64,000 nucleotides of DNA from a phage. Shown one piece after another: positions 47,291 to 49,480 of the stretch (position 1 is the first letter of the stretch; the number at the start of each line of letters is the position of its first letter). Under the pieces are notes generated by a model that was not told the DNA's origin, ran no database searches, and worked only from the letters and a program-made list of their open reading frames with translations. The stretch is taken from the NCBI GenBank assembly GCA_033580375.1, contig GCA_033580375.1_4527.1; one strand, given 5' to 3'. The translations under genes and the position numbers were made by a program.

Positions 47291-48616
47291 TCAAAGTGCC
47301 TCCAAGTCTTTAGTGTACTCTGTCACAACATCAGTAGACTTCCAATACTCGTTTTCTTCTTTCTTAGCTTTAGCTTCTTCTGCTAGTTTACGTGCTTCGT
47401 CGGAAGTGATATGGAAGATGTTAAGACCTACCAGTTTATCGACATGTTCTTTATACATTTCGATTTGTGCTAGCTCTTCAGTCAAAGCTTTACGGGTCTT
47501 GCCTTGAATCACAATTTCGCCACTGATAACTTTTTTGATGAAGTGTGCCTTAGCAAAAGCAAGTTTAAATGCTTTTTCAGATTCAAGGATTTTGTTGTCA
47601 ATACGTTTCTGAACGTAAGTCTTACGGACTTCAACAAAATCTTTGATTAAGTCTACTACATTATCATAGACCGCTAATTTACCCTTTTCATTAATCACTG
47701 TGATGTTTTGTGAACGACGTTCGATGAGACTAAAATCTTTCATGATTTTTTCATGACGTAGCTCTTCATCATCAGGAAGCGAGTACTCTTTACGGAACTT
47801 CACCTTAAACCCAAAGCCGTGTTCACCACAATCGTCTTCCCATGAGATTAGTCCTTTGTCTTCCAACGGGTCAAGAACCTTACTCACATACGTTTCACGG
47901 TCGAATTTATATGGGATTTCAGTTATCTGCATTTGAGTGCGAGATGTGAACTTATATGTTCCGTGAATCTCATAACGCCCATCAACTTCATGTACTTCAC
48001 CACGGAATTCCGGGAATTCAACTTTTGGCTTAGTGACATTTTTACCTTGAAGAGCTTGTAATACTGCCTTTTTGACAGATTTAAAACTATGAGGCAGAAT
48101 ATTTGTTGCGTAACCGGTTGCAATACCGGAGACACCATTCAAAAGAACTGTCGGAATAATAGGAAGATAGAATTTTGGTGGAACGTGTTCTTTATCTTCA
48201 TGAGCTGGAGCATATTCAGTATCTTTATAGACATTATAGAAATTTTTACTTACACGAGCAAAAATATAACGAGATGCTGCAGCTTTTTGGACTGTTCTAG
48301 AACCAAAGTTGCCTTGGCCATCTAACAGTGGATAGTTGTTGTTCCATGTGTTAGCCATCAATGCGCCTGCATCTTGTGCAGAAGATTCACCATGGTGATA
48401 ACCTAAATCTGCAACACCACCCGCAATTGACGCAAGTTTATGAAATTTTTCTTTATTACCACGAGCCAAATCTAATGCACGATGAACCACAAAACGTTGA
48501 ACCGGCTTAAATCCATCAATCATATTTGGGATTGCACGGTTTTCAACGGTGTACATCGCGTATGCTAAGGCTTCGTTATCAATAATACTTTTTAGATTAC
48601 GAGAATTCAATTGCAT
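47291..48616 (-). CDS. 52: DNA topoisomerase II medium subunit gp52
   Basis: 441-aa ORF (T4 gp52 is 442 aa), GyrA-like N-terminal region. Confidence 0.9.
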   Translation of the reverse strand: MQLNSRNLKSIIDNEALAYAMYTVENRAIPNMIDGFKPVQRFVVHRALDLARGNKEKFHKLASIAGGVADLGYHHGESSAQDAGALMANTWNNNYPLLDGQGNFGSRTVQKAAASRYIFARVSKNFYNVYKDTEYAPAHEDKEHVPPKFYLPIIPTVLLNGVSGIATGYATNILPHSFKSVKKAVLQALQGKNVTKPKVEFPEFRGEVHEVDGRYEIHGTYKFTSRTQMQITEIPYKFDRETYVSKVLDPLEDKGLISWEDDCGEHGFGFKVKFRKEYSLPDDEELRHEKIMKDFSLIERRSQNITVINEKGKLAVYDNVVDLIKDFVEVRKTYVQKRIDNKILESEKAFKLAFAKAHFIKKVISGEIVIQGKTRKALTEELAQIEMYKEHVDKLVGLNIFHITSDEARKLAEEAKAKKEENEYWKSTDVVTEYTKDLEAL

Positions 48617-48620
48617 ATTT

Positions 48621-48761
48621 TCACCATATTAATGAACGAATAATCATTATAACATCTGAAATGAAAAGCACTACTTGGATTAGTCCAAACATCACACCGT
48701 AGTACAGAACCGTAAGCAACAACAAGAGCCCGAAGGCTCCTGCTAAGATGTTCTTAATCAT
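48621..48761 (-). CDS. small membrane protein (46 aa), not in ORF track
   Basis: ATG...TGA frame MIKNILAGAFGLLLLLTVLYYGVMFGLIQVVLFISDVIMIIRSLIW; start overlaps the upstream small ORF stop (TAATG). Confidence 0.45.
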   Translation of the reverse strand: MIKNILAGAFGLLLLLTVLYYGVMFGLIQVVLFISDVIMIIRSLIW

Positions 48762-48907
48762 TACTCGCCTTTTAACACGTTAATAAGAGCTAAGACCGCT
48801 AAGGTACCTTGTGATACGGCCTGTTGAAATACTGTTGTTTCGCCCGTAACTAAAGTGTTAACGAATAAAAACGACCAACACAGCAATGCAATAATCCATG
48901 CTACCAT
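48761..48907 (-). CDS. small membrane protein (48 aa), not in ORF track
   Basis: ATG with SD GAGGT; MVAWIIALLCWSFLFVNTLVTGETTVFQQAVSQGTLAVLALINVLKGE; T4 ac/52.1 position. Confidence 0.45.
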   Translation of the reverse strand: MVAWIIALLCWSFLFVNTLVTGETTVFQQAVSQGTLAVLALINVLKGE

Positions 48908-48932
48908 TTTAATTACCTCAAAAATAAATTAA

Positions 48933-48959: not shown

Positions 48960-49406
48960 TTAGTAACTCTGCAGAATGAATTTGAAATTATCAGCCAGAA
49001 GACGGTTCATTTCAGTGAGTGTTTGATATTCTGACGTATGGTTGCGAGTGAATGCCAGAGCCAATTGACCTTTACCATAACCAGTAGTCAGTGGTTTCAT
49101 GTTCTTAGCTGCAACAAAGATTACATCATATTCAGTATTGTTAGTGGCCATGGTACGAGCTAGTTGTGAACGGCCTTGACGAATGTGAGAAAGAATTGCA
49201 TCTAACCCTTGTTTAGAACGTTGACGTCCTACAAAGAATCGTGCTGCTACTTGACGCCAGTCAGATGAACCTTTAACGAAGAAGTAAAAACCTTCACGAG
49301 AACGAAACTCTTTAGAAACTTCAGAACCGTATTCGCCATTACGAACTACTGCAACAACTTCACCGCCAACTTCCAGAAGGTCTTTACGAGTTAAATATTT
49401 GGACAT
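48960..49406 (-). CDS. ndd: nucleoid disruption protein Ndd
   Basis: 148-aa ORF; C-terminal half (RSKQG...LSHIRQ.RSQLART...[38 protein letters not shown]) matches T4 Ndd as recalled. Confidence 0.8.
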
Positions 49407-49450: not shown

Positions 49451-49480
49451 ATTATACTCTGCTCTCAAGAGTTTGTACAA
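49451..49480 (-). promoter_or_regulatory. T4-type early promoter for ndd
   Basis: Minus strand (T)TGTACA-N17-TATAAT. Confidence 0.45.

Follow-up and report, generated by a model that had tools for sequence, protein, structure and literature searches.

Homologs of T4 ac and 52.1 in a Mosigvirus-like phage, with an mRNA hairpin and a predicted middle promoter inside the 52.1 frame

The window, by which we mean the whole stretch of 64,000 nucleotides of phage DNA that was analysed, carries on its minus strand two small consecutive reading frames, of 48 and 46 codons, between ndd and gene 52, as the original prediction had stated. The details on which that prediction relied, namely a TAATG overlap of the two frames, a GAGGT Shine-Dalgarno sequence before the first and a 4-nt gap between the second and the gene 52 ATG, are all present in the sequence. 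A single base of TAATG is common to the ac stop and the 52.1 start, and the gap, AAAT, lies between the 52.1 stop and the ATG at 48616. The features of the locus are the following:

48960..49406, minus strand: ndd (nucleoid disruption protein), the upstream neighbour; Pfam Phage_T4_Ndd, E=4.8e-88; phrog_1102.
48919..48915, minus strand: Shine-Dalgarno sequence GAGGT of ac, 7 nt 5' of the ac ATG; read from the sequence.
48907..48761, minus strand: ac homolog (ORF1), ATG start, 48 aa and a TAA stop; protein MVAWIIALLCWSFLFVNTLVTGETTVFQQAVSQGTLAVLALINVLKGE; read from the sequence.
48761..48621, minus strand: 52.1 homolog (ORF2), ATG start, 46 aa and a TGA stop; protein MIKNILAGAFGLLLLLTVLYYGVMFGLIQVVLFISDVIMIIRSLIW; DUF7396.
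48745..48720, minus strand: mRNA hairpin in 52.1, codons 6-14, with a stem of 9-11 bp and a UUCG loop, as obtained by folding.
48646..48670, minus strand: putative MotA-dependent middle promoter P52 of gene 52, at 52.1 codons 31-39; predicted from sequence identity.
48621..48625, minus strand: Shine-Dalgarno-like GGTGA of gene 52, overlapping the last Trp and the stop codons of 52.1; read from the sequence.
47291..48616, minus strand: gene 52 (topoisomerase II medium subunit), the downstream neighbour; Pfam DNA_topoisoIV, E=4.6e-78; phrog_551.

The 1.2 kb around ac and 52.1 share 99.5% identity with the Escherichia phages phiE142 and phiC120, and about 98% with many Mosigvirus genomes: the source is a Mosigvirus-like T-even phage. 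Its gene order, ndd–ac–52.1–52, differs from the ndd–stp–ac–52.1–52 order of T4 by the absence of stp before ac, and no stp was found anywhere in the six-frame ORF listing of the window. The original prediction had located the two frames where T4 has its ac/52.1-type small genes, and this assignment is upheld by synteny, by matches to phrog_2501, phrog_3595 and DUF7396, and by the annotations of relatives. The pair is already known in T-even phages, and is found here in a Mosigvirus form devoid of stp.

Small hydrophobic frames are common by chance. Within the window, 91 ATG-initiated ORFs of 40-60 aa are found in the six frames, and the two ORFs rank 2nd and 5th among them by hydropathy, alongside plainly spurious frames. 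Since length and hydrophobicity prove nothing by themselves, the case for ac and 52.1 homologs rests on comparative evidence. What raises the two frames above chance is their maintenance across genera, their matches to curated profiles, and an excess of synonymous over nonsynonymous change in every comparison between genera. The original prediction had proposed tBLASTn as a check, and conservation is indeed what such a search reveals: run against the phage collection, which was used to define family breadth, it returned 274 records for Ac and 716 for 52.1, both frames being kept across genera. A word-indexed protein search, too shallow to estimate breadth, yielded only 4 clusters with Ac as the query and 9 with 52.1. 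On these grounds we regard ORF1 and ORF2, with near certainty, as genuine genes, orthologous to T4 ac and 52.1.

The ac homolog matches phrog_2501 ('acridine resistance protein') with E=2.4e-22 in the PHROG profile search, as do T4 Ac (E=2.2e-25) and members of the Yersinia, Klebsiella and Dhakavirus types (E=1e-17 to 1e-23), and near-identical phages label ORF1 'acridine resistance protein'. Pairwise alignment gives only 32% identity to T4 Ac (NP_049877), with the central block VFxQAxxQG kept, including Q33-G34; G34 corresponds to G38 of the T4 protein. Across five Ac subtypes, the motif TGET[ST]V[FI]xQAxxQG recurs in a frame of 47-52 aa. The family evolves fast: between genera pN ranges from 0.30 to 0.46 and pS from 0.59 to 0.79, pN remaining lower than pS. 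No Pfam hit at E<=1, no NCBIfam entry and no PDB relative was found for the ac homolog; more generally, neither Ac nor gp52.1 has a match in NCBIfam, PADLOC or PDB sequences.

The window and T4 proteins are alike in size (48 and 51 aa), in their placement between ndd and 52.1, in the phrog_2501 match, in the transmembrane helix-turn-helix organization and in the central motif [ST]V[FI]xQAxxQG; in both phages the ac stop overlaps the 52.1 start. They differ at the turn, which is TGET in the window and IDAS in T4, and at the N-terminus, where the window protein is four residues shorter. The overlap with 52.1 is also different, being 1 nt (TAATG) in the window and 8 nt (ATGATTAA) in T4. In size, helix-turn-helix fold, Gly motif, location between ndd and 52.1 and orientation on the same strand, the ac homolog is thus a regular member of the family.

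The two products had each been described as one transmembrane helix, which is roughly correct, but AF2 models and hydropathy add detail in both cases. For the ac homolog, AF2 (pLDDT 77) places a helix at residues 2-21, a break at G22-E23 and a weaker second helix at 24-46; by hydropathy only the first helix (residues 2-20) provides a good membrane span, and the turn is formed by T21-G22-E23-T24. Ac would accordingly be drawn as a 48-residue inner-membrane protein, made of a transmembrane helix, a turn and a second helix. For gp52.1, the model (pLDDT 96.5) is one continuous helix of 44 residues, from 2 to 45. Such a helix is too long for one span; it may therefore be tilted or kinked, or the chain may fold as a hairpin or as a transmembrane plus an interfacial segment. 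The protein is nearly all hydrophobic; among its polar residues, Q29, D36 and S43 follow one another at intervals of 7 and share one face with S35 and R42. This polar stripe hints at a helix-helix interface. To our knowledge gp52.1 has no known function; our best guess is that it may oligomerise within the membrane or else bind a membrane protein of the host.

Identification of the 52.1 homolog is straightforward. Its match to Pfam DUF7396 (PF24129) scores 75.3 bits over a cut-off of 27 and spans residues 1-46 of 46, and it matches phrog_3595 with E=1.8e-21, the same family as T4 gp52.1 (NP_049876, 46 aa). The two proteins have the same length and are 70% identical, residues 19-39 being fully so, while the N-terminal third differs (LAGAFGLLLLL in the window, LGYSLALAALL in T4). 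In both phages 4 nt separate the stop from the gene 52 ATG, a stable hairpin occupies the 5' third of the frame, and the MotA box and -10 element of P52 fall at the same codons.

Selection on the 52.1 frame was evaluated on the 22 loci in which the gene is complete. Besides the window and T4, these comprise 15 of 16 IMG/VR contigs (L018, the other one, breaks off within 52.1), one Klebsiella Jiaodavirus, one Yersinia phage and three Mosigvirus-like records from GenBank. In all 22 the frame is 46 codons long, with no indel or stop. Third codon positions are variable in 38 of the 46 codons, second positions in only 14. Window and T4 differ with pS 0.73 and pN 0.20, an omega of about 0.09, and in the C-terminal half pN falls to 0.08 against a pS of 0.66. 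Between genera pS is near saturation (0.66-0.79) and pN stays at 0.05-0.31; dN/dS is about 0.05-0.26 in comparisons where dS could be estimated. This pattern is the signature of a translated protein under strong purifying selection.

Proteins as tiny and hydrophobic as these are expected to be missed by mass spectrometry. In a T4 proteome study both Ac and gp52.1 are 'NA', that is, undetected by this technique (PMC9697503 Table S2), and the lack of a gp52.1 peptide would suit a different reading of ORF2, as a regulatory spacer holding an early terminator and P52, open by chance. A stable hairpin and a promoter do sit within the frame, MH243438 annotates a 'terminator' there and no CDS, and a 52.1 CDS is also missing from LR027383, KU255730 and MN101229. 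A spacer, however, does not account for a frame unbroken in every complete locus, for silent change near saturation next to low pN with variation concentrated at third positions, for a curated Pfam family covering the sequence, or for a start codon that always falls on the stop of whichever gene lies upstream. A fortuitously open spacer was rejected on frame conservation, selection and Pfam membership, and we consider it extremely unlikely.

Comparison of the loci indicates that the interval from ndd to 52.1 is a swap-zone of tiny membrane-protein genes, of which 52.1 is the fixed end. Mosigvirus genomes carry ac only, T4-type phages stp and ac, and other genera a phrog_5941 protein of 57-59 aa, stp, sometimes an Ac-type protein, and a phrog_9347 protein of 53-55 aa. 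At the fixed end, the first eight bases of 52.1, ATGATTAA, are invariant in 18 unique sequences. Read in the other two frames they contain TGA and TAA, and any upstream gene therefore terminates on the 52.1 start. The resulting overlap of upstream stop and 52.1 start is TAATG in the window and ATGA or ATGATTAA elsewhere. On the other side, the gap from the 52.1 stop to the next ATG is 4-9 nt: 4 nt in most loci, 9 nt in three (L016, L017 and L021).

The conserved start-on-stop overlap and the short gap fit translational coupling of ac, 52.1 and gene 52. Expression may then be pictured as a coupled chain, in which ac would be translated from its own GAGGT, 52.1 by re-initiation at TAATG, and gene 52 from its start four nucleotides past the 52.1 stop. 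Both small genes would be transcribed with ndd on early transcripts; in T4, ac and 52.1 transcripts are of the early class (PMC9697503 Table S2).

Gene 52 has, in addition, a middle promoter of its own, a known feature which in the window is predicted to lie within the 52.1 frame. Codons 31-39 read GTG CTT TTC ATT TCA GAT GTT ATA ATG, and contain a MotA box TGCTTTT (48670..48664), a 12-nt spacer and the -10 element TATAAT (48651..48646), with an expected start at about 48641-48639. The arrangement TAGTGCTTTT, 12 nt, TATAAT, at 48673..48646, fits the MotA middle-promoter consensus, (w)(w)(w)TGCTTtA at 12±1 bp from a good -10 (Hinton 2010, PMC2988021). None of the critical bases varies among the 18 unique sequences, not even at the third positions of V31, L32 and V37, which are 4-fold degenerate; variation in this stretch is limited to the third positions of F33, S35 and I38.

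P52 has been mapped experimentally in T4, and its presence in the window is deduced from sequence identity: the MotA box TGCTT, the 12-nt spacer and the -10 fall at homologous 52.1 codons in the two phages, the -10 being TATAAT in the window and TATTAT in T4. The mapped T4 start is printed as '65227', between entries 153011 and 166702 (Hinton 2010 Table 1, PMC2988021). This evidently stands for 165227, a digit having been dropped, which is nt 123 of T4 52.1; the T4 TATTAT ends 7 nt before genome position 165227.

The second signal within 52.1 is the mRNA hairpin. Its 3' arm runs into a U-rich tract of Leu codons, UUGUUGUUGCUU, which is interrupted and partly pairs with the stem. Evaluated against synonymous recodings, the native RNA is much the stabler, which speaks for selection on the structure: the window hairpin gives z=-4.0/-3.3 and the T4 structure z=-3.3/-4.8, while the mean z is -0.04 in 154 control windows taken from ndd, ac and gene 52, none of which falls below -3.0. 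The hairpin is built from different sequence in Mosigvirus, T4-type phages and Jiaodavirus. The single long UUCG hairpin of the window is replaced in T4-type phages by two tandem hairpins, with 100% of cells paired over 12 distinct sequences, several switches between G-U and Watson-Crick pairs and one double change from C-G to U-A; the second of them is devoid of a U-tract. In the Klebsiella phage the stem AGCGGCU/AGCCGCU is followed by UUGCUUUUAAUUUUG.

Other results count against the hairpin. The 76-nt hairpin region is not significant against dinucleotide shuffles (z=-1.44), the Klebsiella hairpin fails to reach significance in the fixed test window (z=-1.4), and no match was found in Rfam. 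Nor was the 52.1 hairpin flagged by a simple promoter/terminator scanner, which saw no enrichment of sites in this region. In its favour, the same hairpin is annotated as a 'terminator' in MH243438. A further 'terminator', placed by that record between ndd and ac, was rejected, being no stabler than shuffled sequences (z=-0.37).

We infer that the hairpin is likely to be a leaky terminator or attenuator, or else an RNA-stability element upstream of P52. Together with the U-rich tract it probably attenuates, from the 5' third of 52.1, early read-through into gene 52. A bolder proposal treats the 141-nt frame as three overlapping codes, a selected membrane protein, P52 and a rebuilt hairpin, with the hairpin serving as a translation-sensitive attenuator and ATGATTAA as a universal docking point; we hold this combination to be speculative and, on the whole, unlikely.

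The ac gene is among the oldest phage markers, and we know of no proven mechanism for it to date. The drug-resistance phenotype originally invoked for such small membrane proteins is real for ac, but its sense is reversed: the wild-type product confers sensitivity to acridines and resistance arises from its loss. In T4, ac knockouts plate on acriflavine, the G38R substitution leads to resistance, and plasmid-borne Ac sensitises E. coli to acriflavine (by about 3 logs) and to ampicillin (bioRxiv 10.1101/2025.06.30.662393). The acridine phenotype is established only for T4 and T2 (bioRxiv 10.1101/2025.06.30.662393, PMC13250531); for the window protein it is assumed. Homology with T4 Ac suggests that this protein would raise the acridine content of the infected cell, and that its loss would yield acridine-resistant phage.

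How Ac would do so is a matter of two main proposals. The 2025 preprint, in which an ESMfold model of T4 Ac shows two short helices, puts forward a block of AcrAB-TolC by Ac in place of the earlier notion that uptake is increased; this model rests on that one preprint, which contains no binding or efflux assay (bioRxiv 10.1101/2025.06.30.662393), and a 2026 PNAS paper restates the block as an assumption (PMC13250531). A functional analogy, and nothing beyond that, can be drawn with AcrZ, the E. coli AcrB accessory protein, whose roughly 49 residues make up a membrane peptide with a single transmembrane helix: if the preprint model holds, Ac would likewise bind the transmembrane domain of AcrB. 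The two have no detectable sequence relationship, and AcrZ tunes the substrate preference of the pump, while Ac would act as its inhibitor. Binding and blocking of the host pump by Ac, in the manner of a small accessory membrane peptide, is the mechanism favoured at present; it appears to us possible, with a probability approaching but not exceeding an even chance.

The classical view of the 1960s is that Ac, without contacting the pump, becomes embedded in the inner membrane and there increases passive permeability or the uptake of dye. It agrees with early work proposing an early, energy-dependent membrane change that raises acriflavine uptake (cited in bioRxiv 10.1101/2025.06.30.662393), and with the nature of Ac, a hydrophobic helix-turn-helix peptide of the bilayer-perturbing kind. 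The absence of any Pfam hit at E<=1, meaning no detectable similarity to known pump-accessory peptides, points the same way. However, ampicillin, to which plasmid-expressed Ac also sensitises cells, is a substrate of AcrAB-TolC; moreover, one substitution such as G38R is enough to inactivate Ac, and the central motif is kept across genera. These observations favour a specific protein contact over generic membrane damage, neither point being decisive, and we judge the permeability view somewhat unlikely.

Two broader roles have to be weighed against a pump block. In the first, Ac and/or gp52.1 would act on host membrane lipid metabolism and underlie the phosphatidylglycerol stimulation induced by T4, the acridine phenotype being a side effect. 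The T4 sa-delta-9 deletion, which removes 52.1, ac, stp, ndd, ndd.1-6 and denB, does abolish the stimulation of phospholipid synthesis after infection (PMC6071114), and several of the deleted genes encode membrane proteins. Yet twelve genes are gone in this mutant and nothing singles out ac or 52.1, nor was similarity to lipid enzymes or regulators found in Pfam or NCBIfam; such a role is quite improbable. The mutant keeps about 50% of the wild-type yield (PMC6071114), from which it follows that ac and 52.1 are dispensable in the laboratory.

In the second, the two products would be membrane factors of superinfection exclusion, a role originally suggested for small membrane proteins of T-even phages at large, or of anti-defence. 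Early expression, documented for T4 (PMC9697503), residence in a hypervariable cassette adjoining stp, which is known to trigger the PrrC system of the host, and the fast evolution of Ac, as expected of host-interaction genes, would all be in keeping with this. Nevertheless, searches of PHROGs, Pfam and PADLOC linked neither Ac nor gp52.1 to exclusion, giving no match to PADLOC, Imm/Sp-type families or defence-related profiles, and no such phenotype is reported in the literature found on ac and 52.1. We regard a function of this kind as highly improbable. The preferred explanation, which combines two genuine genes, their probable coupled expression and the signals inside 52.1 with the less certain efflux block by Ac, is in our estimate very probable as a whole.

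A 52.1 CDS is omitted in LR027383, KU255730, MN101229 and MH243438, and several GenBank entries for close relatives leave the gene out or name it wrongly. The practical value of these results is therefore one of annotation quality: 52.1 is real and strongly conserved, yet it is left out or misnamed, and in at least one record an automated 'terminator' call takes the place of the CDS. This omission or misnaming, the threefold use made of the 52.1 sequence and the invariance of the ATGATTAA junction are modest additions, not discoveries.

The consequences for the biology of T-even phages are conditional on the mechanisms discussed above. If the three codes do overlap within 52.1 as proposed, early read-through into the topoisomerase gene would occur only while ribosomes coupled from ac melt the hairpin, and ATGATTAA would let any small-gene cassette swap in upstream with coupling intact. 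If Ac blocks AcrAB-TolC, its divergent subtypes, catalogued here as Mosigvirus, T4, Yersinia, Klebsiella and Dhakavirus-type and 30-60% identical around one motif, would constitute a natural mutagenesis series for a phage-encoded efflux-pump inhibitor.

The first 8 nt of 52.1 show no variation among 18 unique sequences. Both other reading frames of this octamer, ATGATTAA, hold stop codons, so that the upstream gene, whatever its frame, ends on the 52.1 start. The sequence elements considered here, and the positions of 52.1 in relatives, are the following.

Elements in and near 52.1 (window coordinates unless stated; L numbers denote loci compared from relatives)
48754..48761, minus strand: ATGATTAA, first 8 nt of 52.1, columns 1-8 of the 52.1 alignment (A5), all 52.1 loci
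48646..48670, minus strand: MotA box and -10 of the gene 52 middle promoter, inside 52.1 codons 31-39
48720..48745, minus strand (T4, L003: 3797..3834, minus strand): mRNA hairpin in the 5' third of 52.1, from fold stability
49451..49479, minus strand: sigma-70-like TGTACA-17-TATAAT just 5' of ndd, consensus match only
52.1 in relatives: L001 2241..2381; L002 2240..2380; L022 1040..1180; L020 1410..1550; L021 1232..1372

Upstream of this junction, ndd and 52.1 are separated by a cassette of very small genes for membrane proteins, whose content varies (L006-L019, L020, L021): stp, present or absent, Ac-type genes (phrog_2501), phrog_9347 (53-55 aa) and phrog_5941 (57-59 aa). In the window the interval holds ac alone, and no stp was found in the entire 64 kb. 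The match just 5' of ndd is a candidate early promoter of an ndd-ac-52.1 unit. A 47-aa metagenomic protein from ENA (P0013) carries the C-terminal two-thirds of gp52.1 behind an in-frame Ndd N-terminus, MKYMTVTDLNNAGAT; it looks like the product of a natural deletion that took out stp, ac, the 52.1 start and the bulk of ndd, and recalls the acridine-selected 'sa' deletions of T4.

In public records 52.1 is unevenly annotated (L001, L002, L020, L021 and L022): LR027383, KU255730, MH243438 and MN101229 lack a 52.1 CDS, MH243438 carrying a 'terminator' at its site, while PP693301 names it 'recombination endonuclease subunit'. In some relatives, among L006, L007, L016, L017 and L021, the ORF after 52.1 starts MADVIDTLFKQ... 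or MSDV..., the usual gp52 N-terminus being MQLN... or MELT...; the gap separating 52.1 from this ORF is 9 nt in L016, L017 and L021, versus 4 nt in most loci. The atypical start may reflect either a gene inserted here or a gp52 whose N-terminus is a variant form.

Within 52.1, the critical bases of the gene 52 middle promoter are unchanging, fourfold degenerate sites included. The MotA box and -10 of the window are the counterpart of T4 P52, whose start site, given as '65227' in Table 1 of Hinton 2010 (PMC2988021), must be read as 165227.

Compared with RNAs recoded synonymously for an identical peptide, the hairpin in the 5' third of 52.1 has a far higher stability (z about -4); none of 154 control windows fell below -3.0. 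Its stem sequences differ among Mosigvirus, T4-type and Klebsiella Jiaodavirus phages, and T4-type phages feature two tandem hairpins at this position. The structure may act as a leaky terminator or attenuator upstream of gene 52.
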